64,000 nt of DNA from an uncultured SAR86 cluster bacterium (GCA_902602185.1 CACKPV010000001.1:46785-110784); one strand, 5' to 3'. Positions 7,596 to 62,599 are shown, counted from the first letter of the stretch. Program-made: numbers and translations. The notes: generated by a model not told the origin, from the letters alone.

Positions 7596-8443
7596 TCTTC
7601 TGCTGTTTTAGGGTCCAATGCATCTCTGAGCCCATCTCCAAAAAAGTTAAGAGCAAATAACGTAATGCTGAAGGTTAATCCTGAAAAGATCAAAATCCAT
7701 GGATATGATTGCATGCTGACAACACCATCCTTTATCAAAGAACCCCAACTGCTCATCTCAGCTGGAACACCAAGACCTAAAAAACTTAGGAATGATTCCA
7801 GTAGCATGACTGAGGGTATTGTCAAAGTTGCATACACTGCAATAGGGCCCAAGATATTCGGAAGAATATGTCGACGGAACATAGCAAAGTTACTCACACC
7901 CATTGCTTGGGCAGCCTGAACAAATTCCTGATTTTTGAGAGTAATTACTTGAGCACGCACGATTCTTGACATTGTTAACCACTCCACCGCGCCAATAGCA
8001 GCAAATAAAAGAAAAATGTTTCTTCCAAAAATTACCATTAAAAGAATGATGAAAATTATAAAAGGTAAACCGTATAGAATATCTACAATACGCATCATGA
8101 TAGAGTCTACTCTGCCTCCACTATAACCGGCTATTACACCCCAAGAAACTCCAATTAACAGCGCTACCGTGGTGGCAACAAAACCAACCATTAAAGAAAC
8201 TCTTGCACCATAAATAATCCTACTCAATAAGTCTCTGCCAAGACTATCAGTACCCAACCAGTGTTCTGCTGAGGGTGGTTGACCTATGCGGTCAACGAAT
8301 TGGAATTCATATGAATACGGAGCAACAAAAGGAGCAAAAATTGCAAGTGTGGACATAATAATAATTACCACGCCACCAAATATTGCAGCTTTGTTTTGCA
8401 GCAATCTTCTGATTGCATCCTGCCAAAGTGAAGAATTATTCAT
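7592..8443 (-). CDS. ABC peptide transporter permease (OppC/DppC-like)
   Basis: 283 aa, multi-TM, with a binding-protein-dependent transport EAA-type loop (AAQAMGVSNFAMFRRHILPN). 4-nt overlap with the upstream permease. Confidence 0.85.
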   Translation of the reverse strand: MNNSSLWQDAIRRLLQNKAAIFGGVVIIIMSTLAIFAPFVAPYSYEFQFVDRIGQPPSAEHWLGTDSLGRDLLSRIIYGARVSLMVGFVATTVALLIGVSWGVIAGYSGGRVDSIMMRIVDILYGLPFIIFIILLMVIFGRNIFLLFAAIGAVEWLTMSRIVRAQVITLKNQEFVQAAQAMGVSNFAMFRRHILPNILGPIAVYATLTIPSVMLLESFLSFLGLGVPAEMSSWGSLIKDGVVSMQSYPWILIFSGLTFSITLFALNFFGDGLRDALDPKTAED

Positions 8444-12859: not shown

Positions 12860-12878
12860 AACGTATACTATTTTACAT

Positions 12879-12903
12879 AAAAAAAAGGGTGCAATCTGCA
12901 CCC
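12879..12903 (-). terminator. rho-independent terminator downstream of hupB
   Basis: On the minus strand, GGGTGCA-gat-TGCACCC stem-loop followed by T8, about 20 nt after the hupB stop. Confidence 0.8.
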
Positions 12904-12922
12904 TTTTCAAGATAAATTCTTG

Positions 12923-13198
12923 TTAACCTTTCACAGCCATTTTTAAAGCTTTAGCAGCTTTGAACGCAGGTACTTTCGTTGCAGCAATGTGAATAGTTTC
13001 ACCAGTTTGTGGATTTCTTCCCATTCTTGCACTTCTGTCTCTGACCTCAAAATTACCAAAACCACCAATTGAGACCTTAGTACCAGCTGCTAGTGAATCA
13101 GTAATAGATCCAAGAACTGCATCTACTGCTCGACCAGCTTCCGCTTTAGACATGTCAGTGCTAGAAGCAACTGCATCAATTAATTCTGCTTTATTCAT
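12923..13198 (-). CDS. hupB: DNA-binding protein HU
   Basis: 91 aa HU/IHF family (MNKAELID..., [22 protein letters not shown]). AGGAG Shine-Dalgarno upstream. Sits in the lon-hupB-ppiD arrangement. Confidence 0.92.
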
Positions 13199-13276
13199 TT
13201 GAACTCCTCTAAATTAAAAATTACCCTTCTATGAAAAGCTAAGATGCTTCAAAAGTCAAGTAAATAAAGGCTTAAA

Positions 13277-15667
13277 TTAATTTATAATCTCAGGATTTTT
13301 TTTAGATTTTTTAGATTTTTGTTTGTATGTTGCAGACTGTTTTTGTGGCTTTGGTTGTGATTCTAAAGAGTGAGTGATTACATCATCAATCCACTCAACA
13401 GGAACAATTTCTAAATTGTCTGTTATTACATCTGGAATCTCTTTGAGATCAGATTGATTATCGATCGGTATTATTACTTTTTTAATTCCTCCTCTCTTGG
13501 CAGCAAGTAATTTTTCTTTTAATCCACCAATTTTCAAGACTTGTCCTCTTAGGGTAATTTCACCAGTCATTGCAACATCAGAACGGACAGGAATATTCGT
13601 AAATGCAGATATCAATGCTGTTCCCATTCCAACTCCAGCACTAGGACCATCTTTTGGTGTTGCACCCTCAGGAACATGAATATGAACATCAAAGTCTTCA
13701 TAAAAGTTTTGATTTATACCAAGGGATTCTGATCTTGATCTAACTACAGTAAGTGCAGCTTGTATCGATTCCTGCATAACATCTCCAAGTGATCCAGTTT
13801 TTATAATTTTTCCCTTGCCGGGAACTTTTGAAGCTTCAATAGTTAGTAACTCTCCACCAACCTCAGTCCAGGCCAAACCACAGACTTGTCCAACAGTATT
13901 TGATGACTCTGCTTCACCAAATTTAAACTTCCTAACACCTGAATATTCTTCTAAATTTTTGGTGGTGATTTTGGTAGCCCTTTTCGCATTTGATAAATCT
14001 CTTTCTTTAACAACTTTTCTGAGGATTTTCGAAATTTGTCTTTCTAAGCCCCTAACACCTGCTTCTCTTGTGTAATATCTAATTAAATCAAGAATAACCT
14101 CAGAATCAAATTTTATTTCTTTTTCCGATAACCCATTTCTTTCTTTTTGTTTTGGAAAAAGATAGTCTTGGGCAATATTTAGTTTTTCATCTTCAATATA
14201 ACCAGGAATTCTGATGATTTCCATCCGATCCAATAAGGGTCCAGGTATATTTAAACTGTTAGCAGTACATACAAACATCACCTCAGATAAATCATAATCA
14301 ACCTCAAGATAATGATCACTAAAAGATGAATTTTGCTCAGGATCTAAAACTTCTAAAAGTGCTGAAGCAGGATCACCTCGGTGATCCATTCCAATTTTGT
14401 CGACTTCATCTAACAAAAATAAAGGGTTTTTCACTCCAACTTTGATTAATTTTTGAATTATTTTCCCAGGCATAGAACCAATGTATGTTCTTCTATGGCC
14501 TCTAATTTCTGCTTCATCTCGAACTCCACCAAGAGACATTCGAGTGAATTTTCTGTTAGTAGCTCTAGCAATAGATTCTCCGAGTGAAGTTTTACCGACA
14601 CCTGGAGGCCCTACTAAACATAAGACCGGAGCCTTTAAATTTTTTACTCTCTTTTGGACAGCTAAATATTCTAAAATCCTATCTTTTACTTCCTCTAACC
14701 CATAATGGTCTCCATTTAAGATAGATAGAGCAGCCTTGAGATCAGATTTAACTTTTCCCCTTTTTTTCCAAGGAATATCAATGAGAGTATCAAGATAAGA
14801 TCTCACTACAGATGCTTCTGCTGAGGTTGGTGACATCATCTTAAATTTCGTTAACTCACTATTTGCCTTTTTAAGAGCATCTTTAGGCATGCCTGAAGAT
14901 TTAATCTTCTTCTCAAGGTTTTCAAATTCGTCCCCCTCTTCTCCTATTTCACCAAGTTCTTTTTGAGCAGCCTTTATTTTTTCATTTAAATAATACTCCC
15001 TTTGCGATTTTTCCATTTGTTTCTTAACTCTAGACCGGATTCTCTGCTCAACATCGATTACATCCAATTGAGATTCAATAAACGTTAGGATATTTTCAGC
15101 CCTTTTTTGCAAATCGATAATTTCTAAGATTTCTTGTTTTTGAGAAGTATCAACATTCAAATGATTAACAATATTGTCAATTAGGTTAGATAAGTCATCA
15201 ATTGCTTCAATGGTTGAATAGATTTCAGGAGGTATCTTTTTTGTTGATGATACATAATCCTTAAATTTACCTTTAATAAACTTGACCAAATTCATGGACT
15301 CAGACACTTTAATAACGTCATCGGGGATTTCTGAAACGATTGCTTTTAAATAATTTTTTTCTTCAGTAATTTTTTTAATTTTGCAACGCTTGTCACCTTC
15401 AACTAAAACTTTCATAGTACCATCTGGAAGCTTTATTAACTGCAAAATATTACTTACGGATCCATATTCATAAATATCACTAAATCCTGGATCTTCGTTA
15501 GCTGCATCTCTCTGAGCAACTAGAACGATTTTTTTATTAGAATTTGTTGCGGCATTGAGTGCTTCGACTGATTTTGATCGGCCTACAAACAGAGTAGTTA
15601 CAATTCCGGGAAAAATAACTACATCGCGTAAAGGAATTATAGGATAACTTTTTGATATGTCACTCAT
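13277..15667 (-). CDS. lon: ATP-dependent Lon protease
   Basis: 796 aa with Walker A GPPGVGKTS and the protease Ser context PKDGPSAG. Follows clpX. Confidence 0.96.
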   Translation of the reverse strand: MSDISKSYPIIPLRDVVIFPGIVTTLFVGRSKSVEALNAATNSNKKIVLVAQRDAANEDPGFSDIYEYGSVSNILQLIKLPDGTMKVLVEGDKRCKIKKITEEKNYLKAIVSEIPDDVIKVSESMNLVKFIKGKFKDYVSSTKKIPPEIYSTIEAIDDLSNLIDNIVNHLNVDTSQKQEILEIIDLQKRAENILTFIESQLDVIDVEQRIRSRVKKQMEKSQREYYLNEKIKAAQKELGEIGEEGDEFENLEKKIKSSGMPKDALKKANSELTKFKMMSPTSAEASVVRSYLDTLIDIPWKKRGKVKSDLKAALSILNGDHYGLEEVKDRILEYLAVQKRVKNLKAPVLCLVGPPGVGKTSLGESIARATNRKFTRMSLGGVRDEAEIRGHRRTYIGSMPGKIIQKLIKVGVKNPLFLLDEVDKIGMDHRGDPASALLEVLDPEQNSSFSDHYLEVDYDLSEVMFVCTANSLNIPGPLLDRMEIIRIPGYIEDEKLNIAQDYLFPKQKERNGLSEKEIKFDSEVILDLIRYYTREAGVRGLERQISKILRKVVKERDLSNAKRATKITTKNLEEYSGVRKFKFGEAESSNTVGQVCGLAWTEVGGELLTIEASKVPGKGKIIKTGSLGDVMQESIQAALTVVRSRSESLGINQNFYEDFDVHIHVPEGATPKDGPSAGVGMGTALISAFTNIPVRSDVAMTGEITLRGQVLKIGGLKEKLLAAKRGGIKKVIIPIDNQSDLKEIPDVITDNLEIVPVEWIDDVITHSLESQPKPQKQSATYKQKSKKSKKNPEIIN

Positions 15668-15702
15668 AATTATTTAATTAAGGGTTAAATTGAAATTATC
15701 AA

Positions 15703-16956
15703 TCAATTAGCAGTTTTTTCTTTCTTGCTAGATTTAAAAACTTGAATTGGCTTTGCATCTAACGATGCAGAATTTTCATCAACAATGATTTTTTCTAAAT
15801 CATCGTTGGGCAAGTCGAACATAACCTCCATCAGGATATCTTCAAGAATAGAACGAAGGCCTCTGGCACCTGTCTTTCTTTCAATAGCTTTTCGTGCAAT
15901 ATATTTTAAAGCCTCATCTCTGAAAACCAGTTCGACTTTATCAATTTCGAAAAGATATCGATACTGGTTGACCAAGGCATTTTTGGGCTCTTTTAAGATC
16001 CTAACAAGGGAATCTTCATCTAACTCTTTCAATGTTGTAATAACTGGCAACCTGCCAACAAACTCAGGAATCAGTCCATATTTAACAAGATCTTCAGGCT
16101 CAACAATTTCCAAGTTTTCTTGCATTATTTCTTTTTCATTTTTGGATGAAACACTAGCACTAAAACCTATACCGGTTTTGTTAACTCTTTGAGTAATAAC
16201 TTTATCGAGACCAGAAAAGGCACCACCACAAATAAACAAAATATTGGAGGTATCAACTTGAATAAAATCTTGTTGTGGATGCTTCCTTCCCCCTTGTGGA
16301 GGAATAGAAGCAATTGTTCCTTCAATTAATTTCAGAAGTGCCTGTTGAACACCCTCTCCAGAGACATCTCTTGTTATGGAGGGGTTGTCAGTCTTTCGAG
16401 CAATTTTGTCAATTTCGTCAATGTACACAATTCCCAATTGAGCTTTCTCTGGATCATATTCAGCCCTTTGCAGTAACCTTTGAATAATATTTTCAACATC
16501 TTCTCCAACATATCCTGCTTCTGTCAATGTGGTTGCATCAGCAATTGCAAACGGCACATTTAAAATTTTTGCCAGGGTTTGTGCAAGTAAAGTTTTACCA
16601 CTTCCTGTTGGCCCCAAGAGCAAAACATTACTTTTTTGTAACTCTACAGAATCTTTTGCAGGATTATTGAGTCTTTTATAGTGATTATATACAGCAACCG
16701 AAAGAACTTTTTTTGCCTTATCTTGTCCGATGACATACTCATCAAGGCGTTGATAAATCTCAACTGGTGACATCAAAGATGATTCAGTTGTTGCTTCTGT
16801 TACTTTTAATTCTTCAGCAATGATATCGTTACAAAGTTCAACGCAATCGTTGCAGATACAGATGTTATCTTGACCAGAGATAAGTTTTTTAACTTCAGAG
16901 TAGCCTTTTTTACAAAACGAACAACTTAGTTTCTTTAAATCAGCGTTATCTGTCAT
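15703..16956 (-). CDS. clpX: ATP-dependent Clp protease ATP-binding subunit ClpX
   Basis: N-terminal C4 zinc finger (CSFC...CNDC), Walker A GPTGSGKT, and IGF-type loop region. Confidence 0.97.
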
Positions 16957-17555
16957 GCGTCCCTCATTGTAAGAATATCATCAACAATGCCGTAATCCTT
17001 AGCCTCATTGGCATTTAAAAAATTATCTCTATCCGTATCCTTTTCGATGGTTTTCATTGACTTACCTGTATGTTTAGCTAAAATCTCGTTGACTTTCTTT
17101 TTCATAAGTAAAATTTCTTTGGCATGAATTTCAATATCTGAGGCTTGACCTTGAAAACCACCCAGGGGCTGATGGATCATTATTCTTGAATTTGGTAAGG
17201 CAAATCTCTTTTTTTTATCTCCACCGCATAACAGTAGAGCACCCATACTAGCCGCTTGACCTATACAAAGTGTCGATATAGAGGGAGAGACAAACTGCAT
17301 CGTGTCATAAATGGCTAAACCAGAAGAAATAACACCCCCAGGGGAATTGATGTAAATATTTATATCTTTTTTTGGATTTTCAGACTCTAAAAATAAGAGT
17401 TGAGCTACAATTAAATTAGATAAATTATCATTTATAGGGCCAGTTATGAAAATAACCCTCTCCTTTAAGAGTCGGGAATAAATATCGAATGCCCTCTCTC
17501 CCCGAGCTGTTTGCTCAACTACCATAGGCACGAGAGTTTGGTATTGGTCTTTCAT
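16953..17555 (-). CDS. clpP: ATP-dependent Clp protease proteolytic subunit
   Basis: 200 aa with the catalytic Ser block GQAASMG and His block IMIHQP. 4-nt overlap with clpX. Confidence 0.97.
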
Positions 17556-49016: not shown

Positions 49017-50183
49017 CTACTGAGACAAATCCTGAATTGCATCGAGAATTAGTTGATAATCATCATAGAACTGATCGGATTCACCATCTGATCTTGTATT
49101 TGGGGTGGAGATATCATCATCTGCATTCCCAAAACTCACCAACCCGGTACTCTCTAAACCTTGGTAAAGCCAAATTAAAAAACCTACATTATTGATATTA
49201 CCGATCCAAGATAAACCACCCCAATTTTGTTTAGATCCGAAAGATGGTTGATATTTAGTAATGCGAACAAATACTACATCGTTATCATTGTCTACAAAAA
49301 TATATTGCCCAAATCTTCCACTAGCATTGAAAATTTTGGAATTTTCTTCATACCTGGATACCCACCAATGAAGGGAGTAACCCCTTGTTGATGTCGTCCA
49401 GGTGGATGGAGTATCCCAAACATACTGAAAAGTTTCATCAATTAATTCTTTTGAAATAATTTGTTCTCCGTTAAAAGTTCCATCATTTGCAAATAATTGA
49501 CCGAATTTTGCATAATCTCTTGCAGACATATCAATGCAGCAGTATGTGAGGACATTATCTGCAGCATCTCGCCATAGTGTTTTGTTAGCAATGCCAATTT
49601 TATCGAGTATCCTTTCCTCTAGTAAAATATCTGCCTTTTTTCCAGTTGCAGAAATTAATATTTCTCCCAACAACATTGAATTTATATTGTTATATTCAAA
49701 AAGGGTATCAGGTTGTTTTTCTAACTCAATTTTTTTTGCGTATTCCATATGATCAACTTTAAAAAACATTGCTTCATGCTGATGCCAAGGATACTGAAGG
49801 CCACTGGACATATTTAAGAGTTGTCTTATTGTTATTTCATCTCTTTCATCATTAAAATTAATATAATCCCCTATCCTTTCGTCTAAGCTTTGTATTTCAC
49901 CTTTATCTATGGATATTAAAATTAAAGCTGCATAAAAACTTTTTGCAACTGACCAAGATGTTCCAAATGATTCTTTATCATATCCATTTGCATACCTTTC
50001 ACCAATGAGGAATCCATCTTTTATTAAAACTACAGATTGTGTTGCATCATCTGAAAATGCCAAATCGAACAAGTGCTCAATTTTTTTTGAATCAATATTT
50101 AAATCACTTGGAGATTTTTCATTCCAAGCAAATACATTATTGACAAGAAAGAAGGTAAAGGAAATTACTAGGATCTTAAACAT
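49017..50183 (-). CDS. beta-lactamase-related serine hydrolase (class C / esterase family)
   Basis: 388 aa with a signal peptide, SxxK motif (SVAK), and a YNN segment at the position of the Y-x-N motif. Confidence 0.75.
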   Translation of the reverse strand: MFKILVISFTFFLVNNVFAWNEKSPSDLNIDSKKIEHLFDLAFSDDATQSVVLIKDGFLIGERYANGYDKESFGTSWSVAKSFYAALILISIDKGEIQSLDERIGDYINFNDERDEITIRQLLNMSSGLQYPWHQHEAMFFKVDHMEYAKKIELEKQPDTLFEYNNINSMLLGEILISATGKKADILLEERILDKIGIANKTLWRDAADNVLTYCCIDMSARDYAKFGQLFANDGTFNGEQIISKELIDETFQYVWDTPSTWTTSTRGYSLHWWVSRYEENSKIFNASGRFGQYIFVDNDNDVVFVRITKYQPSFGSKQNWGGLSWIGNINNVGFLIWLYQGLESTGLVSFGNADDDISTPNTRSDGESDQFYDDYQLILDAIQDLSQ

Positions 50184-50320: not shown

Positions 50321-51541
50321 TTATTTCGATATATATTTGCCAAGTTCATATCTTGCAACAGCTCGTCTGTGGACCTCATCAGGACCATCGGCAAGTCTGA
50401 GACACCGCATATGGGCATACATACTGGCTAAAGGTGTAACTTGGGAAACACCCTCCCCACCATGAATCTGAATGGCACGATCAATGATATCCAAGGCCAC
50501 AATTGGAACCATAACTTTGATCTGAGCAATTTCACTTGCAGCTATCTTATTCCCTACAGTATCCATTTTATGAGCAGCATCGAGTGTAAGTAATCTGGCT
50601 GCATTTAATTGTATTCTTGAATCGGCAATGTGATCAAAATTTGCTCCAAGTTGAGCAAGAGGTTTCCCAAAAGCATTTTTATTTGGATCAGTTCCTCTTT
50701 GACACATTAACTCGAGAGCTCTTTCTGCAACACCGATAGATCTCATGCAATGATGAATTCTGCCGGGGCCTAATCGACCTTGAGCAATTTCAAAACCCCG
50801 ACCTTCACCAAGCAGTAAGTTCTCTTTAGGTACTCTGACATTATTGAATTTTAAGTGACCATGTCCATGAGGTGCATCGTCATATCCAAAAACATGCATC
50901 ATTTTTACAATCTCTATGCCCTCACTTTCCATAGGCACTAAGATCATTGAATGCCTTTGATGCTTTGCATTTTCAGGGTTAGTCACACACATAAAGATGA
51001 GAATCTTACACCTTGGATCTCCTGCCCCTGATGTCCACCATTTTTCTCCATTTATGACATATTCATCACCATCAAGAACAGCTGTTGCTGCCATGTTGGT
51101 TGCATCCGAAGAAGCTACTCCGGGTTCGGTCATTGCAAAAGCAGACCTTATTTTCCCATCTAATAAAGGTTGTAGCCATTCTTCTTGATGCACTCTGTTT
51201 CCATAACGCGCAATAACTTCCATATTGCCAGTATCAGGAGCAGAACAATTAAATACCTCTGATCCAAAACTATATCTTCCCATTTTTTCAGCTAGGTGGG
51301 CATATTCATAATTCGTCAAACCAGCACCAAATTCACTTTCTGGTAAAAATAGATTCCACAATCCTTGTGACTTAGCCTTTTCTTTAATTTCTTCTACAAT
51401 TTCAGGATAGTAATTCCAACGATCTTGGTCTTTTCGGATTTGTTGTTCAAATTTTTGTTCGTTAGGTGCAACCTCATCCAGTAAAAATTTACTAACTCTT
51501 TCTAATAAGTCTTTTGCTTCTGGTCTTAATTCTTTAAACAT
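50321..51541 (-). CDS. acyl-CoA dehydrogenase family protein
   Basis: 406 aa with ACAD N, middle and C domains (AFAMTEP..., [10 protein letters not shown]-terminal IHGG.G). Confidence 0.88.
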
Positions 51542-51671: not shown

Positions 51672-52571
51672 ATGAAAATTAGCACCTTTGATCTTAACTT
51701 ATTTGTAGTTTTAAACGCTATCTATACCGAAGGTAGTCTTACAAAGGCAGCTGAGGTGGTTGGAACTACGCAGCCAGCAGTGAGTAATGCATTATCACGA
51801 TTAAGAGAAAAGTTTGATGATGAGTTATTTATTAGAACTGGTTCTGGTATGACTCCTACGCAAAAAACTGAGAATATAATTTTAGATGTTCAAAAAGCAC
51901 TAGCACTGATTCAGAAAAGTGTGAACGAACCGAACGAATTTGATCCCCTTACAAGTGAACTTACCTTTAGAATCTCAATGAATGATTTATCAGAAGTAAG
52001 AATCCTACCCAATATTCTAAAAAAATTAAACTCTGAAGCCCCACATATCACCATTGAAAGTTATCAGTACAATCGTAGAGATTTCATTCATGCCCTAGCA
52101 AGTAATGCTCTAAATTTTGTGATTGATCCAATTATTCCAAAATCAAAAAATATTAAACATGATTTAATCTTTCAAGATGAATTTGTATGTGCTTTTAAGA
52201 AGTCACACCCAATTGCAAAACAAAAAAATCTTTCAATGGAAACTTTTCTTGATTTAAAACAGGTCAATATTTCAAATCGACGGAAAGGTCCTTCCCTAAT
52301 AGATGTTGAACTTGAGAAAGTTCAATTGAAAAGAAATATAGTGCTCCGTGCTCAACATTTTATGGTGACTCCAGAGATAATAAAATCATCTGATTATGTT
52401 TTAGTATGTTCTAAAAGTTTTGCAGTGAACAACGGACTATCTTGGAAAAAACTTCCGATAAGTCTTCCCAAAGTTGAACAGCATCTAATGTGGCATGCAA
52501 GTGACGATAATGATGGATCTCATATTTGGATGAGAGAACTCATTAGAAAAGCTTTCTTAGATTTAGTGTAA
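51672..52571 (+). CDS. LysR-family transcriptional regulator
   Basis: 299 aa with an N-terminal wHTH (GSLTKAAEVVGTTQPAVSNALSRLRE) and a LysR substrate-binding domain. Divergent from the acyl-CoA dehydrogenase. Confidence 0.9.
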   Translation: MKISTFDLNLFVVLNAIYTEGSLTKAAEVVGTTQPAVSNALSRLREKFDDELFIRTGSGMTPTQKTENIILDVQKALALIQKSVNEPNEFDPLTSELTFRISMNDLSEVRILPNILKKLNSEAPHITIESYQYNRRDFIHALASNALNFVIDPIIPKSKNIKHDLIFQDEFVCAFKKSHPIAKQKNLSMETFLDLKQVNISNRRKGPSLIDVELEKVQLKRNIVLRAQHFMVTPEIIKSSDYVLVCSKSFAVNNGLSWKKLPISLPKVEQHLMWHASDDNDGSHIWMRELIRKAFLDLV

Positions 52572-52573
52572 TC

Positions 52574-53374
52574 TTAATCTGTCCAATTACTACTGGAAGC
52601 ATTTACAATCCCACCATCACATGTAATTGTATCCCCTACAGTGTATGCTCCAGCCCTTGAACATAAATAAATCACCAGTCCAGCAATATCTTCAGGTGAT
52701 CCTATTCTTTTTCTAGGGTTAGTTTTTTCAATAAAGCTATAATCATGATTTACTGCTGGTCCCAACATCATGCTTGGGAATGGTCCAGGAGCAATTGCAT
52801 TGACAGTGATGTTTTCTGAAACAAGTTTACGAGCTAAAGCTCTGGTTAGATGATGAACAGCTGCTTTGGAGGCTGCATATGAGTAAGTTTCAAAAGGTGG
52901 GACTTGGATTCCTTCAATTGATCCTATGTTGATTATCCGAGATGGGTCATCTAGAGATGCATTTTTTTTCAATAAATTTGTTAAATTTCTTGATAAGAAA
53001 AACATACTTTTAACATTCAAATCCATAACCTTATCCCATCCACCCTCAGAAAAAGACTCGAAAGGTTCTCCCCAAGCTGCGCCAGCATTATTCACTAGAA
53101 AATCTAGAGAGTCCTCAAAAGAACTATACTTTGCAACTAATTCCTCAACACCATCTAAAGTGCCCAAATCATTATGAATGGGGATGCACTCTCCTCCGAA
53201 TTTCTCAGACAATTCTTCTGCTTTTTGATTTAACTGATCTTCTTTCCTTGCAGATATGTAAACTTTTACTCCATTAGCTAAAAATCCAGCGGCAATCATT
53301 TCTCCGATACCTCTTGAGCCACCAGTAACTAATGCAACCTTACCTTTGATTTTAAATAAATCTTCAATTTTCAT
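52574..53374 (-). CDS. SDR-family oxidoreductase (RhlG-like 3-oxoacyl reductase type)
   Basis: TGGSRGIG cofactor motif, NNAG, and catalytic YxxxK (YAASK). Start set to the second Met (MKIEDL) because GGAG lies 6 nt upstream of it; 53386 is an alternative. Confidence 0.85.
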   Translation of the reverse strand: MKIEDLFKIKGKVALVTGGSRGIGEMIAAGFLANGVKVYISARKEDQLNQKAEELSEKFGGECIPIHNDLGTLDGVEELVAKYSSFEDSLDFLVNNAGAAWGEPFESFSEGGWDKVMDLNVKSMFFLSRNLTNLLKKNASLDDPSRIINIGSIEGIQVPPFETYSYAASKAAVHHLTRALARKLVSENITVNAIAPGPFPSMMLGPAVNHDYSFIEKTNPRKRIGSPEDIAGLVIYLCSRAGAYTVGDTITCDGGIVNASSSNWTD

Positions 53375-53415
53375 ATAGTTCTCCATGAAACTTTAAATAA
53401 TTATATAATCTTGTC

Positions 53416-55196: not shown

Positions 55197-55704
55197 TTGT
55201 CTAAAGAAAATCTCACCATTGTATAATTTATTTTACTTGCTTTTTTTTGCTTTGCCCATTTTCTCGATGAATTTACCTGTTCCAGATAACGAAGTAGTTT
55301 CAGAACCACTCCCAGAGTCCTATAAAAATATTTTATTGTCTGAAAGTGATATAAATAAATTTATTGAAAATGCTCTACAAAATAATAAACAACCTGTTTT
55401 CTTTTTTGGAGCAAATTGGTGCCCTGATTGTAGAATTCTGGATGGGACTCTTGAATTACCCACTATAAAAAAATATATGCAAGAAAAATTTGAGGTTTTA
55501 CATATTGATGTTGGAAGATATGACATCAATATGGAGCTCATGCAGTATTTTCAGATTATGCCTCAAAAAGGGATTCCCAGAGTTATTATTTTAGATAAGT
55601 CAAAGCAACCATTAAATTTAGCTGACACTGGTGAGTGGACTACTGCTAGACAAAGATCAAAGCAAGAAATCTTTGATTATTTTCAAAAATATACTGTTGA
55701 ATAA
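55168..55704 (+). CDS. secreted thioredoxin-like protein (WCPDC)
   Basis: Thioredoxin fold with FFFGANWCPDCR. Start set to the internal MKKNFKN, which gives a signal-peptide-like N-terminus. ORF-track start 55069 and Met at 55267 are alternatives. Confidence 0.65.
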   Translation: MKKNFKNNFICLKKISPLYNLFYLLFFALPIFSMNLPVPDNEVVSEPLPESYKNILLSESDINKFIENALQNNKQPVFFFGANWCPDCRILDGTLELPTIKKYMQEKFEVLHIDVGRYDINMELMQYFQIMPQKGIPRVIILDKSKQPLNLADTGEWTTARQRSKQEIFDYFQKYTVE

Positions 55705-55734
55705 AAAAAACCAGGAATTAATCCTGGTTTTTTT
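55703..55734. terminator. bidirectional rho-independent terminator
   Basis: A8-CCAGGA-attaa-TCCTGG-T7 between the convergent thioredoxin-like gene and the TonB-dependent receptor gene. Confidence 0.8.
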
Positions 55735-55749
55735 AAATTTTAATAGAGT

Positions 55750-58107
55750 TTAATATCTATAGGTATAACGCAAACCAATAGTTCTTGGTGGTATCCATTG
55801 TTGATAATCTCTAGGTCTCCAACTTGGACTGTTAATAGCATAAACAAATGCTTGTGTTCTATTATCAAATAAATTATCTACAACAAGCTGAAGTGAAGAG
55901 TTTTCATTTAACTCCATACCTACATTAACATTAAACTTAGTATAACTAGGTGCCATCATACTTTTATCTTGTGCAAATGTTGCATAACTATCACCATAGT
56001 GGAGCATATCCATTCTTGCGTAAGATGGTTTTGAATCGTAAACAAACTCGTAACTCAAACCAACATTATATTGTTCTTCTACAGAGCCCGGCAATCTGTC
56101 ACCAGCAACAGCCCCGAAACTTGGCATATCAACACTAGTTTCAGCACTCATAAATGATCCGGCAAAATCAACATATAAACTATCTGTAAGAGCAAAACTA
56201 AAATCAAGCTCAACACCGCTAGTTTCAGCTTCACCACCATTAGCTTGGAAGCTCCATCCACATGCCGGAGCAATACCTATTTGGATATCTGTCCAATCAA
56301 TCATGAAATAGGTGGCATTTACATTGAATGAATCACCTCTTGCCTTGACACCAAACTCAGTATTTTCAGCTCTATCCGAGGTATATCTTCTTTGGAAAGA
56401 ACTGGCCTCTGGATCATTAGCACAGAAGTATGGCAAGGCAGCATTGTTTCCACCTGGTCTATATCCTGCTGAAGAAACAGCAAAAAGTGTTAAATTTTCA
56501 TTGGGTTGATAGGTAGCAGTAAATTTAGGTCTGTTGTCAGATTCTGACCCGTTTTCTTCAGAACAAGTTGTGCCCTCTGGTGCTGTTCCATCACAACCAA
56601 AAGATCCGCCATAAAAAACTCCAAACTCTGAAGATTTGAAACCATCTGCGATTTCATAATCTCTAAAGCCAGCAGTAAATGTCCATTTATCAAGATTTAA
56701 AGCAACCTGACCATAAAGAGCTTGTTCTTCAGAATAGTTGTAATAAGTATAGCTGCCATAGTAAATATAAGGATAGCCAAGATCACCCTCACAATAAGGA
56801 GGACAATATGCTGAACCATCTGGTCCTGTCCAACCCATAATAACGTTAGCAATATAATCATAGGCATCAGCACTGCTTCCATATTGAGTTTCGACAACCG
56901 AATTTGGGTCAGCTTTTGATTTGTAGTCATAATATCCAAGTGTCCATTCAACCATGCCTGGATTTGAGGTGAGACGAATTTCCCTTATTTCAGTTTCATC
57001 GTCAGATGTAACAACTAATGGACCTGAATAAAGATCATCCATATCAATTCTTGACCACTCTGTATCACTATCTTCATCGTAGTCAGAATCCATGGTGATA
57101 ACGGTAGTAGTGAAATACTCTGATTCAACTGAGGTTGTTGATACAAGAGATGTAGTCACAACATTGTGAATTTCATCAGTAACTTCAGCAAAAGCAAGCA
57201 AAGGATTAAATTGACTCCAATCTCTTCCAAGGCTATTTGCAATTCCTCGAACTCTACAACTATTAGGTTGGTCCATATAGTTATACCAGAAATCAGCCTC
57301 GGGACCACAGTCAGCACTATTAATATCAGCATTACCTGGTTTATCACCGTTGCCTTTTTCCTTCATTCCCTCATCATGTCTATCGTTAACAATGTATCGC
57401 ACCATGGAAGTGACCTTTCCATCATGAAACCTTGGAGCATCGTTTTCGTAACCAAGAGTTATCACATATCTCTCATCGTCTTGATCACCAACACCCATAT
57501 CCATTGTCATAACGTTTTGATAAATACCGGGGTCAAGCGACTTTGAGTATGTTGCTCTCACAGCAAGGTTATCATTTAAGGGGACATTCACCATTGCGTT
57601 ATAACTCACAGCAGAGTTAGGAGCATATTTTTTCTTTCCATATTCTAGTTGATAGCTATAATCAAAACCTGAAGCATCAGGCATTTTTGTTATATATCTT
57701 ATTGTTCCACCAACTGCATTTGATCCGTAAAGAGTACCTTGAGGCCCTCTAAGCACCTCAATTCTCTCGATATCAAAAATGTTCATAACTTCACCTGGAA
57801 CTTCATCTACATAAGTTGATGTTGTACCCGATGATCTTTGGGCAGAACTGGTATTAAGACCCCGAAAGGTAAAATACCTTGATCCACCTGGTGTTGTGAC
57901 ACCGGCTAAAGATCTTAAAAAGTCTTCTGGTGTAGAAATACCTCTCTCTTGAATATCTACATCAGTTATAACCGAAATATTCATTGGAATATCCTGTACG
58001 GTTTCCTCTTTCTTATTAGCAGTAACAATGACTTCCTCAACATCAGCTTGGACTGTTGTAAAACCAATAAACAGTGCTAATGCCGTAAAATTTCTAAAAT
58101 TAAACAT
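55750..58107 (-). CDS. TonB-dependent outer-membrane receptor
   Basis: About 785 aa. Signal peptide, TonB-box-like EEVIVTA, plug-domain blocks (IERIEVLRGPQGTLYGSNAVGG), a long beta-barrel and an aromatic C-terminus. Start set to Met22 (MFNFRNF). Confidence 0.9.
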   Translation of the reverse strand: MFNFRNFTALALFIGFTTVQADVEEVIVTANKKEETVQDIPMNISVITDVDIQERGISTPEDFLRSLAGVTTPGGSRYFTFRGLNTSSAQRSSGTTSTYVDEVPGEVMNIFDIERIEVLRGPQGTLYGSNAVGGTIRYITKMPDASGFDYSYQLEYGKKKYAPNSAVSYNAMVNVPLNDNLAVRATYSKSLDPGIYQNVMTMDMGVGDQDDERYVITLGYENDAPRFHDGKVTSMVRYIVNDRHDEGMKEKGNGDKPGNADINSADCGPEADFWYNYMDQPNSCRVRGIANSLGRDWSQFNPLLAFAEVTDEIHNVVTTSLVSTTSVESEYFTTTVITMDSDYDEDSDTEWSRIDMDDLYSGPLVVTSDDETEIREIRLTSNPGMVEWTLGYYDYKSKADPNSVVETQYGSSADAYDYIANVIMGWTGPDGSAYCPPYCEGDLGYPYIYYGSYTYYNYSEEQALYGQVALNLDKWTFTAGFRDYEIADGFKSSEFGVFYGGSFGCDGTAPEGTTCSEENGSESDNRPKFTATYQPNENLTLFAVSSAGYRPGGNNAALPYFCANDPEASSFQRRYTSDRAENTEFGVKARGDSFNVNATYFMIDWTDIQIGIAPACGWSFQANGGEAETSGVELDFSFALTDSLYVDFAGSFMSAETSVDMPSFGAVAGDRLPGSVEEQYNVGLSYEFVYDSKPSYARMDMLHYGDSYATFAQDKSMMAPSYTKFNVNVGMELNENSSLQLVVDNLFDNRTQAFVYAINSPSWRPRDYQQWIPPRTIGLRYTYRY

Positions 58108-58214
58108 ATAATCCCCTAAATAAATGAAATAAGTTTGCTTAATATAGCATTTTGACCAAAAAAAACACACTTTTTTTCTGTAAATACCCTGTTATGTATA
58201 GCTTTTAAGTGTTT

Positions 58215-59471
58215 TTAATCGAATTGTTTTTTATCGCTGGCAAATAATAAATAAAAAATTCCTCCAAATACGAGCAGTCCTGCAGCTATAAAGAAAACCA
58301 AAGTCCAAGATTGAGTTAAATCAAGCACAATTCCAGAAATAATATTGCCTAATACCCCTGCGGCAGTTCCTAAAGTTGAGGCAATTCCAACTAGGGTACC
58401 TGTAGATTTAGGACCTAAATCAGCATGATTAACACCAAACCCCCCTGCTGCTGCTCCTGTAAAAATATTGGTCATACAAATAAGGCCAATTATCGTGTAG
58501 ACATCATTTAAAAATGGGATGGTGAATAAGCATGCTGCCGAACCAAAAAAACCAATAGAATTTGCACTTTTTCTTACCTTGATTACTTTATAACCTTTCT
58601 TTATCAAGGTATCTGCAATATATCCACCCAAGTTAAGGGCAATTACAGAAACAATGCTGGGGATGATGATAAGAACTAAAAAAGATCCTGACGAAAGGTC
58701 AACACCTAATTCGTTATCAACAAACTTTGGTAAAAAAGATAAAAAAACCAATAAACTCCAATTATTAGCAAAAGTTGCAACTATGATAGCTATAAATGGA
58801 AGATTGCTTAGTAGTTTGGATAAAGGTATTTGCGTAATAGCTTCAGATGCAGGAGCATTATCTTCAATATAACTTAATTCCTCAGAAGATATTTTTTTAT
58901 GGTCTCTGGGGTAAGAGGTTACATTTTTGTTCCAAAAAAAGAACCAAATAATGCCGATAACTCCAAAAAGGTAAAAGGCCCATTCCCAACCCAAACTAAT
59001 GATGATGAGTTGAGTACCTATGTAACCAATAATTGTTCCAATTGCAATTCCACTGTTGGTAAAAGCAATGGCTCTGGTTCTTTCTTTAAAAGGAATCCAT
59101 CTTGCATACAAACTATGCCATGCTGGGAATGTAACTCCCTCTCCAAGCCCTAGGAGTACTCGCATAATTAACAGCACAAAAAAACCATTATGGGCTGCAA
59201 GTGGGGTCAAAATAGTAAACAAAGACCATAAAACCACTCCGCAACCTAAAACAAATTTTCCTCCGAAGCGATCAGCTAAATAGCCACCCAAAGCCATGGT
59301 TAACATATACCCCAGATAAAAAGATGAAAAAATAAATCCAACCTGTGAGTCACTCCATCCAAATTGTTCCTGCATAGGAATGATGGCCACAGAAATATTT
59401 ACTCTATCGATGTAACAGATAATGACAGCTAAAGTGGAATATAAGATCAAGTTAAATCGTTGGGGGATCAT
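58215..59471 (-). CDS. MFS transporter (anion:cation symporter-like)
   Basis: 418 aa, 12 TM, with MFS loop motif GGYLADRFGGK. Confidence 0.85.
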   Translation of the reverse strand: MIPQRFNLILYSTLAVIICYIDRVNISVAIIPMQEQFGWSDSQVGFIFSSFYLGYMLTMALGGYLADRFGGKFVLGCGVVLWSLFTILTPLAAHNGFFVLLIMRVLLGLGEGVTFPAWHSLYARWIPFKERTRAIAFTNSGIAIGTIIGYIGTQLIIISLGWEWAFYLFGVIGIIWFFFWNKNVTSYPRDHKKISSEELSYIEDNAPASEAITQIPLSKLLSNLPFIAIIVATFANNWSLLVFLSFLPKFVDNELGVDLSSGSFLVLIIIPSIVSVIALNLGGYIADTLIKKGYKVIKVRKSANSIGFFGSAACLFTIPFLNDVYTIIGLICMTNIFTGAAAGGFGVNHADLGPKSTGTLVGIASTLGTAAGVLGNIISGIVLDLTQSWTLVFFIAAGLLVFGGIFYLLFASDKKQFD

Positions 59472-59533
59472 GATTCAAAAGTGTGGGTCGCAGTATATCC
59501 AAATGCCAAGATTTTTACACTTTTTTGGAAATA

Positions 59534-60886
59534 CTATTTTAATGTAATTGGCATTTCTTGGATTGCATGTACAAAATTATTGGGAGCAACTTTCCACTCT
59601 CCATTAACTTGATAATCAGGGAAACGAGTCAAAAATTGTGAAAAGAATTCTCGAAGTTGCATCAAGGCAACAGGCTTGCCTAAGCAAGTATGTCTCCCAA
59701 TCCCAAAAGCTAAGTGCTTATCTGCATTTTTTCTGAGAATATTAAAACTATTTGGATCTTTAAATACAGCAGGGTCACGATTGGCAGCTCCATACCATAA
59801 GGCAATTTTTTCATAGGGGCCAATTTTTTGATGTCCAATTTGAGTTTCTTGTAATGTTGTTCTGCGCATATGAATGACTGGTGAAACACAACGAACCGTT
59901 TCATTGACAAAATTATCCATCAAATTCAGGTCATTGATTAACAGCTCCTTTTGATCAGGATTATCATGCAATAATTTCACACCACCACTCATTGTATTTC
60001 GAGTAGTATCATTGCCTGCAAAAATAATTAATAACCAAGAACCATCTAAAAATTCTTGGGATAATTTTTCTCCTTCAATTTTTGCATTTGCAATGGCACT
60101 GAGAAGATCATTAGAAGGCTTTTCTCGTTTAGCTTGCAAAATAGATTTGCCATAATCAAACATTTCATCCACCATGGCATTGAACATGTCAATCATTGCT
60201 GGATCAGGAGTATTATCAGAATGACCTTCATTCTTTTGTTTAATTTGTTCAACAGCAAAATACTGAGCCAGTTCTAGAAACTCCATCCAATCGACAAGTT
60301 TTTGTCTATCAGCTTCGGGTATGCCTAGAATTTCTGAGAGAGTAAATATAGGTAACTGTTGGGAGACCTCTTTTACAAGATTGCATTCACCCATGTCACT
60401 AATATTATCAAGTAATGCTGAAACTTTAAGAGAAACTTTCTCTTGCAATTCTGCAACAAAATTTGGTCGAAAAAAAGGCATATGCTCTTTGCGCAACCCA
60501 AGATGCATTTCTCCGTCTAAATTGAGCATATGATCTATAGTTGTTTGAAATAATCGAGGGTGCCGGTTCTCTTCTTCCCCTAATGTTAGCAAGTTTCCAG
60601 TGGCATACTGAGATGAAAAAATCTCAGGATTCATGGACACAAATTTTATGTCTTCGTAACTAGTTAATGCCCAATAACCAGGTTCCGGGTCTGTAGGCAT
60701 AGGATCATGAAAGTACACGGGGGCATTTTCTCGAAGGGTCTGATACAACTCAAAAGGTTGACCTTGAGTAAACAGATATAAATCATTTAATGAAGCTTCA
60801 GTTCTAAAAGCATAATGTTTTGGATGTGCAGGTTGGTTTATTGTGTGTTGCGGGACTTCCTTTGAGAGAACAAACTCATTACTCAT
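59534..60886 (-). CDS. cytochrome P450
   Basis: 450 aa with heme-thiolate motif FGIGRHTCLG, ExxR (ETVR), and I-helix AGNDTTRN, which resembles the CYP153-type signature as I recall it. Confidence 0.9.
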   Translation of the reverse strand: MSNEFVLSKEVPQHTINQPAHPKHYAFRTEASLNDLYLFTQGQPFELYQTLRENAPVYFHDPMPTDPEPGYWALTSYEDIKFVSMNPEIFSSQYATGNLLTLGEEENRHPRLFQTTIDHMLNLDGEMHLGLRKEHMPFFRPNFVAELQEKVSLKVSALLDNISDMGECNLVKEVSQQLPIFTLSEILGIPEADRQKLVDWMEFLELAQYFAVEQIKQKNEGHSDNTPDPAMIDMFNAMVDEMFDYGKSILQAKREKPSNDLLSAIANAKIEGEKLSQEFLDGSWLLIIFAGNDTTRNTMSGGVKLLHDNPDQKELLINDLNLMDNFVNETVRCVSPVIHMRRTTLQETQIGHQKIGPYEKIALWYGAANRDPAVFKDPNSFNILRKNADKHLAFGIGRHTCLGKPVALMQLREFFSQFLTRFPDYQVNGEWKVAPNNFVHAIQEMPITLK

Positions 60887-61330
60887 TTATATCCAACGTC
60901 TCACTTTGGAACAATACTCGTCATAATCTGCAAACTTTTCTTTCATTACTGCTTCCTCTGGAAGAATTTGAAAAATTGTTATGTAAATCATAAACAATGC
61001 AACAATAGGAAGTGTTAGCCAAGCACCAAAAATAAAACCAAAACCAATAAGTATTTCACTCATACCAAGATACATTGGATTACGGGAAAAAGTAAAAGGG
61101 CCCTCGACGACAAGCATCGAAGCTTGATCAGGATCGACCGGGTTAACTGTGGTGCCCACTTTACGAAATACTCTCACTGATGCAATTAAGATACCAAGCC
61201 CGCTTAAAATAAGAAAAATCCCAATTACACTTTGGTATGCCAACTCAAAAGGTGTAATTAGAGAATTAGATAAATATAAAATACCTACAAAGATCAATGT
61301 CACTATCGGGGGTGGAATTTTTGTTTGCAT
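60887..61330 (-). CDS. ICMT/PEMT-type small membrane methyltransferase family protein
   Basis: 147 aa, 4 TM, with the family block GPFTFSRNPMYLG. Its stop codon directly abuts the P450 start codon. Confidence 0.7.
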   Translation of the reverse strand: MQTKIPPPIVTLIFVGILYLSNSLITPFELAYQSVIGIFLILSGLGILIASVRVFRKVGTTVNPVDPDQASMLVVEGPFTFSRNPMYLGMSEILIGFGFIFGAWLTLPIVALFMIYITIFQILPEEAVMKEKFADYDEYCSKVRRWI

Positions 61331-61350
61331 CTCAAAATTATAGCAAAAAC

Positions 61351-62235
61351 TTAAATTGTTAAAATAGCTTCAACTAAAGCTTGAGGTTGATTTTCTTGCG
61401 AAAAATGACCGGCATTTATAATTTGATGCATCCTGTCTTTGGCACCAGGCACAATATCAATAAAGTTTTTTTCTGCACCAATGAAAGCTTCATCATGAGT
61501 CCCAAAAACAGTAATCGTAGGTTGTGAAAAGCCTCTCAATTTCTCCCAAGCAAGCACATTCTCTTGTGCCTCAGGATCACTAGCAATCAAGGGAAACAAT
61601 CGCGGAAACACCCGAGGTCCAACCTTATACGATTCATCAGGAAAGGGTGCGTTATATGCAGCTATTTCATCTGCATCTAGAGCCTTCATACTGCCTTGGT
61701 TAACAATTTTACCGCAATTAAAGTTTTCCACTTGTTGACTAAATGCTAGCCATTGCATAAAACCCTTCGTAGCTCCCTGCCCCACTGGCAAATCCGAATT
61801 TGAGACCACTAATCCAGAGAACCTATCTTGATGATGCGCTAAAATCCTTAATCCAATCAACCCGCCCCAATCCTGAGCAAATAAAATGATATTTTTAAGA
61901 TCTAACGCTTCGATCAGACATTGCACCCAAGCAACGTGATTCTCATAACTGTAATGCTCAGCTGTGATCAATTTATCTGATTTACCAAATCCAATTAAAT
62001 CTGGAGCAATCACCCGTTTCCCCCCATCGACTAAGGGTGTAATCATATGTCGATACAGATATGACCATGTTGGCTCACCATGCAGTAATAAAACTACCTC
62101 CTCTTGATTACTTCCTTCATCGAGATAATGCATTTGTAACTGATGTCCTTGAAATAGAATTGTCAGATAGTTAGGTGCAAAATTAAAATCTTTGAGGTTT
62201 TCAAAGTACTTCTCAGGTGTGCGTAAAACTTTCAC
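61351..62235 (-). CDS. haloalkane dehalogenase (HLD-I / DhlA-like alpha/beta hydrolase)
   Basis: 294 aa with HGEPTWSYLYR, nucleophile elbow QDWGG (Asp-Trp), a cap-domain Trp (FMQWLAF), an acid in GTHDEAF and a His in AGHFSQE. Apparent GTG start. Confidence 0.85.
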   Translation of the reverse strand: MKVLRTPEKYFENLKDFNFAPNYLTILFQGHQLQMHYLDEGSNQEEVVLLLHGEPTWSYLYRHMITPLVDGGKRVIAPDLIGFGKSDKLITAEHYSYENHVAWVQCLIEALDLKNIILFAQDWGGLIGLRILAHHQDRFSGLVVSNSDLPVGQGATKGFMQWLAFSQQVENFNCGKIVNQGSMKALDADEIAAYNAPFPDESYKVGPRVFPRLFPLIASDPEAQENVLAWEKLRGFSQPTITVFGTHDEAFIGAEKNFIDIVPGAKDRMHQIINAGHFSQENQPQALVEAILTI

Positions 62236-62357
62236 TGTTTGATAGTAACATTTTAGGAGTAATGGAGGGATTTATAGCTTCATCACTGCCAACAATCATC
62301 ATCCTCGATAACTCTTGGAATTTGGATTTTTATGCAAATTAATTTTTTTGACTAGGT

Positions 62358-62495
62358 CTATTTTGTTTCTAAACCATCAAGTTTTTTTTCGATTTCATCC
62401 AATTTAGCTAGTATTTGATGAAAAAAATTCCTTGCTTCTGTCGGACATTTTTCAAAAAAATGCTCGCTCAATTTCATTAAGTCTTCATCTTTCAT
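62358..62495 (-). CDS. candidate small ORF (45 aa, helical, unknown function)
   Basis: Below the ORF-track cutoff; translated by hand as MKDEDLMKLSEHFFEKCPTEARNFFHQILAKLDEIEKKLDGLETK. Protein-like amphipathic composition, no Shine-Dalgarno. It occupies most of the only sizeable gap between tRNA-Leu and the dehalogenase gene. Confidence 0.3.
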   Translation of the reverse strand: MKDEDLMKLSEHFFEKCPTEARNFFHQILAKLDEIEKKLDGLETK

Positions 62496-62514
62496 AAATG
62501 TATTTTAACAAATT

Positions 62515-62599
62515 TGGTAGGGATGGAGGGAGTCGAACCCCCACGCCTTGCGGCACTTGGTTCTAAGCCAAGCATGTCTACCAGTTCCATCACATCCCC
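62515..62599 (-). tRNA. tRNA-Leu (TAG)
   Basis: 85-nt type II cloverleaf with a long variable arm (TGCCGCAAGGCGT), anticodon loop CTTAGAA and encoded CCA. The acceptor top pair reads G1-U72. Confidence 0.88.

Follow-up and report, generated by a model that had tools for sequence, protein, structure and literature searches.

Gene organization of the locus

A 64,000-nucleotide stretch of DNA from an uncultured SAR86 cluster bacterium (GCA_902602185.1, CACKPV010000001.1:46785-110784), referred to here as the window, was analyzed with respect to a string of five minus-strand genes that combines a TonB-dependent receptor, a transporter and a cytochrome P450. Read in the direction of the genes, the string consists of a haloalkane dehalogenase of subfamily HLD-I (61351-62235, 294 aa), a membrane methyltransferase of the PEMT/ICMT superfamily (60887-61330, 147 aa), a soluble cytochrome P450 (59534-60886, 450 aa), a major facilitator superfamily (MFS) transporter, probably of the organic-anion (ACS/SLC17) type (58215-59471, 418 aa) and the TonB-dependent receptor (55750-58107, 785 aa). 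A preliminary description, made from the sequence alone, had given this order with gaps of 20, 0, 62 and 107 nt. Coordinates, order and gaps were confirmed by direct reading, and profile searches of each open reading frame (ORF) against Pfam and NCBIfam showed that all five of its family assignments were right. The gaps of 20, 62 and 107 nt separate dehalogenase and methyltransferase, P450 and MFS transporter, and MFS transporter and receptor, respectively, whereas the TAA of the methyltransferase (60889-60887) directly abuts the ATG of the P450 (60886-60884). The last gap is counted to the receptor ATG at 58107; the receptor ORF spans 55750-58170 on the minus strand, but this ATG is the better start.

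The boundaries claimed for the string were also recovered. On the 5' side lies a minus-strand tRNA-Leu(tag) gene (62515-62599; ARAGORN, and Rfam with 55 bits), with a strong promoter-like site, TTGGCA-17-TATAAT, beside it (62642-62614). The spacer between the tRNA gene and the dehalogenase contains a 45-aa ORF (62358-62495, minus strand), which is called as a gene in loci L002 and L082-L085. On the 3' side the terminator corresponds to a hairpin with a 13-bp stem and flanking A and T runs (55704-55734), a candidate bidirectional terminator that sits between the convergent receptor and thioredoxin-like genes and would close the string. No terminator-like site was found in any of the internal gaps, and a comparison of the spacers with Rfam returned the tRNA as the sole RNA match and neither a riboswitch nor another known RNA. 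The co-directional layout with short gaps is compatible with a single transcript, on which the five genes would be co-transcribed. When the spacer between MFS and receptor genes was aligned across six genomes, however, the extended -10-like sequence TGCTATATT (58141-58149, minus strand), located 33 nt 5' of the receptor ATG, proved invariant. This conservation suggests a separate candidate promoter for the receptor, which would fit the changed position of the receptor gene between the layouts described below. Co-directional, tightly spaced gene strings are commonplace in streamlined genomes. Conservation across species is the real test of the arrangement.

Conservation across SAR86 and the tRNA-Leu site

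A pattern scan of species-representative genomes yielded 65 loci. Two loci from Caulobacterales, one from Pseudomonas and one without a usable P450 match were left out, and the remaining 61 were tabulated; almost all of these are titled SAR86 cluster bacterium (Magnimaribacterales), and their P450s share 65-80% identity with that of the window. Each locus was searched by tblastn with the five proteins and six flanking markers, and unexplained neighbors were analyzed by ORF calling and Pfam. Not one of the 61 species harbors all five genes side by side, and the idea of a conserved five-gene unit was abandoned. A smaller core is conserved, with the P450 at its center: the MFS gene follows the P450 gene co-directionally within 200 nt in 32 species, and a receptor gene is part of the locus in 30 (5' of the P450 in 22, 3' in eight). 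The methyltransferase gene abuts the P450 gene in nine species, all within the subclade of the window. The dehalogenase gene was located within 10 kb of the P450 gene in seven species and abuts the methyltransferase gene in none. Thus the adjacency in relatives, named in the preliminary description as a check, holds for P450, MFS transporter and receptor but not for the dehalogenase.

Four layouts were distinguished. Layout A, found in the subclade of the window (about nine species), comprises genes for a 210-aa protein, a glutathione S-transferase (GST)-like protein and the dehalogenase, then tRNA-Leu, a variable insert, a DUF4345 gene, a gene for a 206-aa protein, the PEMT-type methyltransferase, the P450, the MFS transporter and the receptor; one of its members (L014) has no dehalogenase within 10 kb. 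Layout B (about 30 species, including SAR86A) runs from the 210-aa protein and tRNA-Leu to the 206-aa protein and the receptor, in either order, and then to P450 and MFS transporter, without methyltransferase or dehalogenase. In layout C (L036, L046 and L047; P450 74% identical) the P450 gene stands between a beta-lactamase-family gene and a DAO/GCV_T fusion gene, and in layout D (L053, L055 and L062; P450 65% identical) it starts 2-10 nt after an M16 peptidase gene; neither layout contains the partner genes. P450 and MFS genes are separated by 2 nt in layout A and overlap by 4 nt in layout B, so that the 62-nt spacer of the window is exceptional, and the MFS proteins of the two layouts are 57-60% identical. 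Orthologues of the receptor are 70% identical where they are encoded 3' of the MFS gene, in the subclade, and 50% identical where they are encoded 5' of the P450 gene, in other SAR86. The association of receptor, P450 and MFS transporter has outlived this switch of sides, which argues for selection on proximity.

The 206-aa protein, which accompanies the core in 28 loci of both layouts (for example L009 8892-9512 and L063 9364-9987), is 32-38% identical between layouts and gave only a weak PQQ_2/BamB-like match. In layout B, the interval between receptor and P450 harbors this protein (206/207 aa) in L063 and, in L017 (8997-9977), a protein with a GH16-like EIDILE motif. One locus binned as 'Crocinitomicaceae bacterium' (L013, PBXW01000139.1) carries a SAR86 cluster of layout A with a P450 of 79% identity and is probably misbinned. 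Homologues of the P450 in Caulobacter (49% identity) were rejected: they lack an adjacent receptor or MFS gene and have enoyl-CoA hydratase and CoA-transferase genes as neighbors.

The methyltransferase is a subclade-specific accessory of this core. It matches PEMT (PF04191, 52.4 bits; cut-off 25), aligns to the structure of Ma-ICMT (4a2n, E 1.8e-4) and keeps the C-terminal cofactor motifs RNPMY and EE..F..Y..Y..R. An assignment to the protein-S-isoprenylcysteine O-methyltransferase equivalog was rejected, with 30.6 bits to NF040696 against a cut-off of 160. The tight junction with the P450 gene recurs, with 0-4 nt, wherever the two genes are found together in the subclade, and it fits the translational coupling proposed from the window. 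The pair was not found outside the subclade: homologues with 46-53% identity (L073-L079) adjoin genes for membrane FA_hydroxylase (PF04116) oxygenases and not P450 genes. These homologues occur in two separate marine contexts, one of which also contains genes for phosphatidylserine decarboxylase and CDP-alcohol phosphatidyltransferase. What recurs is the combination of a lipid oxygenase with a membrane methyltransferase. The enzyme of the window probably O-methylates a lipid carboxylate or hydroxyl group. Representatives of the sequence clusters of the methyltransferase and of the dehalogenase are named Verrucomicrobiaceae or Verrucomicrobiales by their sources, which are probably binning errors.

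The dehalogenase scores 379.6 bits with NF002043 (cut-off 265) and aligns over residues 1-293 with DccA (5esr), DpcA (6f9o) and DmrA (4mj3) at 287-300 bits (E 1e-88 to 1e-84). Since the alignment to DccA and DpcA begins at residue 1, the GTG start is supported. Its D122/W123, D248 and H277 align with D124/W125, D260 and H289 of DhlA; the Asp-His-Asp catalytic triad and, next to the nucleophile, the first halide-stabilizing Trp are shared with the HLD-I enzymes DccA, DpcA, DmrA and DhlA. The cap-domain W162 (GFMQW), a candidate for the second halide-stabilizing Trp, is shared with DccA, DpcA and DmrA, and in the HMMER alignment it lies three residues off W175 of DhlA, in a gapped region. The dehalogenase looks catalytically competent and is probably active.

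The genomic partner of the dehalogenase varies, being the P450 cluster in the window but a GST-like gene in its relatives. In layout A the dehalogenase gene starts 2 nt after the gene for the 351-aa GST-like protein (L009 7490-8374 and 6433-7488, respectively), and the same pair is present in L008, L010, L011, L012, L015 and L040. It is separated from the P450 cluster by tRNA-Leu and 0.5-8 kb of variable DNA. This GST-dehalogenase pair may constitute an organohalide-handling unit of its own. Only in the population of the window does the dehalogenase gene abut the methyltransferase gene. GCA_902542115.1 encodes an identical P450, as do metagenome contigs that share the layout of the window. Five further contigs from different samples show the arrangement as well; it is fixed in the population. 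Identities of dehalogenase homologues drop from 97% to at most 68%, which indicates that an intermediate lineage is unsampled. An abundant group of dehalogenases with 61-62% identity is encoded in an unrelated genomic context. A 213-aa gene overlaps the dehalogenase genes of this group, and an ancestral link of the 210-aa neighbor to the dehalogenase by way of this gene was rejected, as no similarity was found; with the GST-like protein the 213-aa gene product shares a marginal match over 73 residues.

The tRNA-Leu gene is identical in all genomes compared, and similarity stops at its 3' end. The DNA directly 3' of tRNA-Leu(tag) (62236-62514 in the window; L009-L012 and L015) is a hotspot of variable content: a DNA methylase-HNH fusion gene is inserted in L010, a sigma-70-like gene with genes of no known family in L012, a 123-aa ORF in L011 and the dehalogenase gene in the window. 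L011 contains, 3' of its tRNA-Leu and just 5' of the DUF4345 gene, a segment (8246-8420) that shares 89% identity with the DNA between tRNA-Leu and dehalogenase in the window, where the 45-aa ORF lies. The window lacks the GST-like, DUF4345 and 206-aa proteins. From this match and these absences it follows that the dehalogenase gene occupies the place of the DUF4345 and 206-aa genes in the lineage of the window. Since layout B also has tRNA-Leu 5' of the 206-aa gene, the arrangement of the window is the derived one. On these comparisons the dehalogenase is a recent recruit of a single lineage, relocated from the GST pair across tRNA-Leu. It is probably co-transcribed with the cluster in this lineage, but it lies outside the general function of the module and does not define its pathway.

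Protein families and catabolic neighborhood

The P450 (PF00067, 89 bits) contains the Cys-ligand loop FGIGRHTCLG at residues 394-403 (C401), the I-helix motif AGNDTT at 290-295 and the ExxR motif as ETVR at 329-332. Among solved structures it is closest to CYP125MRCA, a reconstructed CYP125 ancestor (264 bits, 36.8% identity), followed by the CYP153-like 6hqw (203 bits, 33.8% identity), CYP268A2 (189 bits), CYP124 (181 bits) and CYP153A7 (176 bits). CYP142 also belongs to the nearest solved relatives. Extant CYP125 enzymes reach only 156-161 bits and rank below the CYP153-like, CYP268 and CYP124 enzymes. The I-helix sequence AGNDTTRN is similar to GGNDTTRN in 6hqw and 6hqg, both of them CYP153-like. 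In P450 nomenclature membership of a family needs at least 40% identity. Assignment to CYP125, as in KEGG-style literature annotation, was rejected at the family level with 36.8% identity, and assignment to CYP153 was rejected with 33.8% identity to 6hqw and no ferredoxin or reductase gene in the window or L001. By similarity the P450 can be grouped with the terminal hydroxylases of lipid, sterol and alkane chains (CYP125/124/153/268-like), of which CYP124 is an omega-hydroxylase of methyl-branched lipids. The expectation of a class I P450 that hydroxylates alkyl chains is thus reasonable by family, but the ferredoxin and reductase that it entails were not found nearby.

The MFS transporter matches MFS_1 with 190 bits; TIGR00894 (263 bits, cut-off 626) and TIGR00893 (219 bits, cut-off 395) both remain below their cut-offs. 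Its nearest structures all belong to ACS/SLC17, namely sialin (240 bits, E 4e-70), VGLUT2 (211 bits) and DgoT (139 bits, E 2e-39), and this resemblance suggests a place among the transporters of the organic-anion type. The receptor contains a Plug domain (PF07715, 67 bits) and a TonB_dep_Rec_b-barrel domain (PF00593, 109 bits). Its N-terminus from the ATG at 58107 reads MFNFRNFTALALFIGFTTVQA / DVEEVIVTA, in which a signal peptide and a TonB-box-like segment were recognized by eye. With regard to specificity, solved structures and NCBIfam gave generic plug-domain matches only and no close characterized relative.

The cluster is embedded in a block of about 20 kb that is syntenic across SAR86. 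In layouts A and B the flank contains an alkyl sulfatase, two acyl-CoA dehydrogenases (ACADs), the 210-aa protein, a thioredoxin-like protein, a Na/Ca exchanger, a short-chain dehydrogenase/reductase (SDR), a LysR regulator and a further ACAD. The last three were identified by Pfam and NCBIfam in the window, the ACAD at 50321-51541 (minus strand), the LysR regulator at 51672-52571 (plus strand) and the SDR at 52574-53386 (minus strand). These flanking genes, to which the preliminary description had pointed as a catabolic neighborhood, are real and syntenic across SAR86; ACAD and SDR share 70-86% identity, and their synteny is kept in both cluster layouts.

The two other ACADs form a pair in L001 (3970-5199 and 5208-6323), equivalent to about 64564-66900 of the window and thus just past its edge. 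Among solved structures, the first has its best matches in Tcur3483 (E 6e-50) and ChsE4 (E 2e-48), with the next best at 2e-33. The second matches Tcur3481 best (E 1e-35); ChsE5 (E 1e-28) ranks sixth behind generic acyl-CoA dehydrogenases. One member of the pair lacks a match to the middle-domain Pfam model. Tcur3483/ChsE4 and Tcur3481/ChsE5 are alpha and beta subunits of heteromeric (alpha2beta2) steroid side-chain dehydrogenases. Matches of the ACADs to the heteromeric pimC, pimD and IpdE2 models of NCBIfam were sub-threshold. A heteromeric pair of the ChsE4/ChsE5 type, one mark of a steroid side-chain cluster, is present beside the locus. The pair is adjoined by an SdsA-type alkyl sulfatase with a lipoprotein-like N-terminus (L001 2264-3973), and layouts A and B keep both the pair and the sulfatase beside the cluster. 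The remainder of the window consists of housekeeping genes. At the edge of the syntenic block, by a tRNA-Val gene, lies a conserved gene for a beta-lactamase-family protein (49017-50183); its match to a 3-succinylated cholic acid synthase model, with 79 bits against a cut-off of 800, is probably meaningless.

Proposed function of the module and its relation to known systems

The explanation that we favor, with a probability of roughly 0.55, is that receptor, MFS transporter and P450 form a conserved module for the uptake and terminal oxidation of a hydrophobic or amphipathic, possibly anionic lipid, to which the methyltransferase was added as an accessory and the dehalogenase as a recruit. The most likely substrate would be a lipid whose chain is of a long alkyl, isoprenoid or sterol type and which may carry a negative charge. 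Beyond the directly observed families, gene order, conservation and rearrangement, four steps can be proposed from what is known of the families. The TonB-dependent receptor would move the compound through the outer membrane, and the SLC17/ACS-type transporter would move it, or an anionic derivative, through the inner membrane. The soluble P450, served by redox partners encoded elsewhere, would hydroxylate or oxidize the terminal carbon, and the chain would then enter beta-oxidation through the neighboring ACADs, including the ChsE4/ChsE5-like pair. Passage through both membranes, as suggested in the preliminary description, with delivery to a cytoplasmic P450 fits the conserved association of the three genes.

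Several observations weigh against a dedicated uptake and oxidation module. About 23 of the 61 species carry the P450 without any partner (layouts C and D), and in L048 a five-gene arginine-biosynthesis block (11513-17230) is located between P450 and MFS genes, which indicates that their linkage is not obligate. For a neutral sterol or alkane, an MFS transporter of the anion type would be an unexpected partner. The P450 is less than 40% identical to both solved relatives measured. No ferredoxin or ferredoxin reductase gene was found in the window, in L001 or in the receptor-P450 gaps of L017 and L063 with layout B, and the 10 kb to each side of the P450 contain no annotated steroid side-chain CoA ligase, enoyl-CoA hydratase or thiolase/aldolase. 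In addition, the position of distant methyltransferase homologues near membrane-lipid genes suits lipid modification as well as catabolism.

The alternative that survives best, although we regard it as unlikely, retains the same mechanism but assumes a linear alkyl amphiphile, such as an alkyl sulfate, a fatty acid or an alkane, in place of a sterol or branched isoprenoid. The SdsA-type alkyl sulfatase as a conserved neighbor, the organic-anion type of the transporter, the I-helix shared with 6hqw and 6hqg and the position of 6hqw as the top match among extant enzymes are consistent with such a substrate. The ACAD pair, however, is closest to steroid side-chain heteromers. CYP153 operons usually carry genes for a ferredoxin and a ferredoxin reductase. 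These genes are absent here, and the P450 is only 34% identical to the CYP153-like enzyme.

It is improbable that the adjacency has no functional meaning and that P450, transporter and receptor act on different substrates within a syntenic block of unrelated genes, in a streamlined genome whose spacers are very short. The synteny of the entire 20-kb block, the unrelated genes tolerated inside the cluster (the arginine operon of L048, the GH16-like gene of L017 and the DNA methylase-HNH gene of L010) and the solitary P450 of layouts C and D are in line with this view. It does not account for the translational coupling of the P450 and MFS genes, which are spaced by 2 nt in one subclade and overlap by 4 nt in another although the MFS proteins share just 57-60% identity, nor for a receptor that remains beside them despite switching sides, nor for the 206-aa protein as a fourth companion of the module in 28 loci.

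The assumption that all five genes encode one pathway for a halogenated alkane or lipid, imported by receptor and MFS transporter, converted to an alcohol by the dehalogenase and processed at its chain by P450 and methyltransferase, is quite improbable. It draws on the co-directional genes of the window with their short gaps (20, 0, 62 and 107 nt) free of predicted internal terminators, on an arrangement fixed on at least five independent contigs, on the retained catalytic residues of the dehalogenase and on its presence within 10 kb of the P450 in seven subclade species. Against it, the dehalogenase abuts the cluster in none of the 61 other species, and the nearest relatives have it coupled to the GST-like gene, with tRNA-Leu and variable DNA between it and the cluster. 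L014 and all species with layout B lack a dehalogenase near the cluster, and the abundant homologues of 61-62% identity reside in an unrelated context. Moreover, characterized HLD-I enzymes act on small haloalkanes, for which a TonB-dependent receptor would not be expected. Since most SAR86 possess receptor, P450 and MFS transporter without dehalogenase or methyltransferase, a haloalkane pathway is ruled out as the ancestral or general function.

Very improbable is the modification of an endogenous membrane lipid (isoprenoid or hopanoid-like) that would be hydroxylated by the P450, methylated by the methyltransferase and flipped or exported by the MFS transporter: a membrane PEMT/ICMT enzyme coupled to an oxygenase, its homologues of 46-53% identity beside FA_hydroxylase genes, in one context with phospholipid-synthesis genes, and the lack of redox partners and a CoA ligase nearby speak for it, but most species have the core without the methyltransferase, a TonB-dependent receptor implies import, the conserved neighbors (ACADs and alkyl sulfatase) are catabolic and the relatives of the P450 are catabolic terminal hydroxylases.

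The locus belongs to a known type, of which it is a new and uncharacterized representative. Receptor loci enriched in lipid-degrading genes have been reported for SAR86, where a P450 was mentioned only as possibly related to xenobiotics (Dupont et al. 2012, PMC3358033). Organism group and the logic of a receptor beside lipid catabolism are the same as in our case; the module and its variants are not described in the text searched. Homologues of cyp125 and fadE26/27 genes have been reported across SAR86 (PMC11582366), and steroid catabolism, including side-chain degradation, has been predicted in this group by Bergstrand et al. and Freel et al. In the literature searched, no description of this receptor-P450-MFS module was found.

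Experiments on the edc estrogen-degradation cluster of Novosphingobium tardaugens have shown that steroids are taken up and oxidized by way of a TonB-dependent receptor and a P450 whose redox partners are encoded at other places in the genome (Ibero et al., PMC7793797). Like the SAR86 locus, edc, a catabolic cluster for a hydrophobic polycyclic lipid, combines a receptor (EdcT) and a soluble P450 (EdcA) apart from the redox partners. EdcA, however, hydroxylates the aromatic A ring, after which ring-cleavage enzymes act, whereas the SAR86 P450 belongs with the terminal-hydroxylase group and has no ring-cleavage genes nearby. The SAR86 locus further differs from edc in the genes coupled to that of the P450, which encode an anion-type MFS transporter and, in a single subclade, a membrane methyltransferase. 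The actinobacterial system for cholesterol side chains (CYP125/CYP142/CYP124, ChsE4-ChsE5, that is FadE26-FadE27, and Mce4) resembles it in the P450 group and the ACAD pair. It differs in import, which proceeds by Mce4 instead of the receptor and MFS transporter proposed for SAR86, and its FadD19, ChsH and Ltp2 have no equivalents within 10 kb of the SAR86 locus. With the CYP153 alkane operons of Alcanivorax and Acinetobacter the SAR86 P450 shares the terminal-hydroxylase group and the NDTTRN of the I-helix; its identity is about 34%, and its partners are a receptor and an anion-type MFS transporter instead of an adjacent ferredoxin and reductase.

A more specific proposal is that the receptor-MFS-P450 module, together with the 206-aa protein and the ChsE4/5-like ACADs, enables SAR86 to scavenge phytoplankton sterols, sterol sulfates or chlorophyll-derived isoprenoid acids from seawater and is tuned in subclades, up to halogenated algal lipids. 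In this complete form it is quite speculative and improbable. If true, the module would be a Gram-negative counterpart of Mce4/CYP125, subclades would tune it by swapping accessory genes at the tRNA-Leu hotspot, and the lineage of the window would have gained the dehalogenase in order to use halogenated algal lipids too.

SAR86 is an ecologically important group that accounts for several per cent of the bacteria in the surface ocean and was cultured only recently (PMC11582366), and its diet of dissolved organic matter is still deduced from genomes alone. If the genes of the module prove to be unrelated, the locus is an ordinary syntenic block. The swaps of accessory genes by tRNA-Leu show how a catabolic locus diversifies in a streamlined genome. 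About half of the species examined carry the module. Its P450, receptor and transporter offer concrete targets, and the ligand of receptor and transporter would reveal which lipid flux of the marine carbon cycle they serve.

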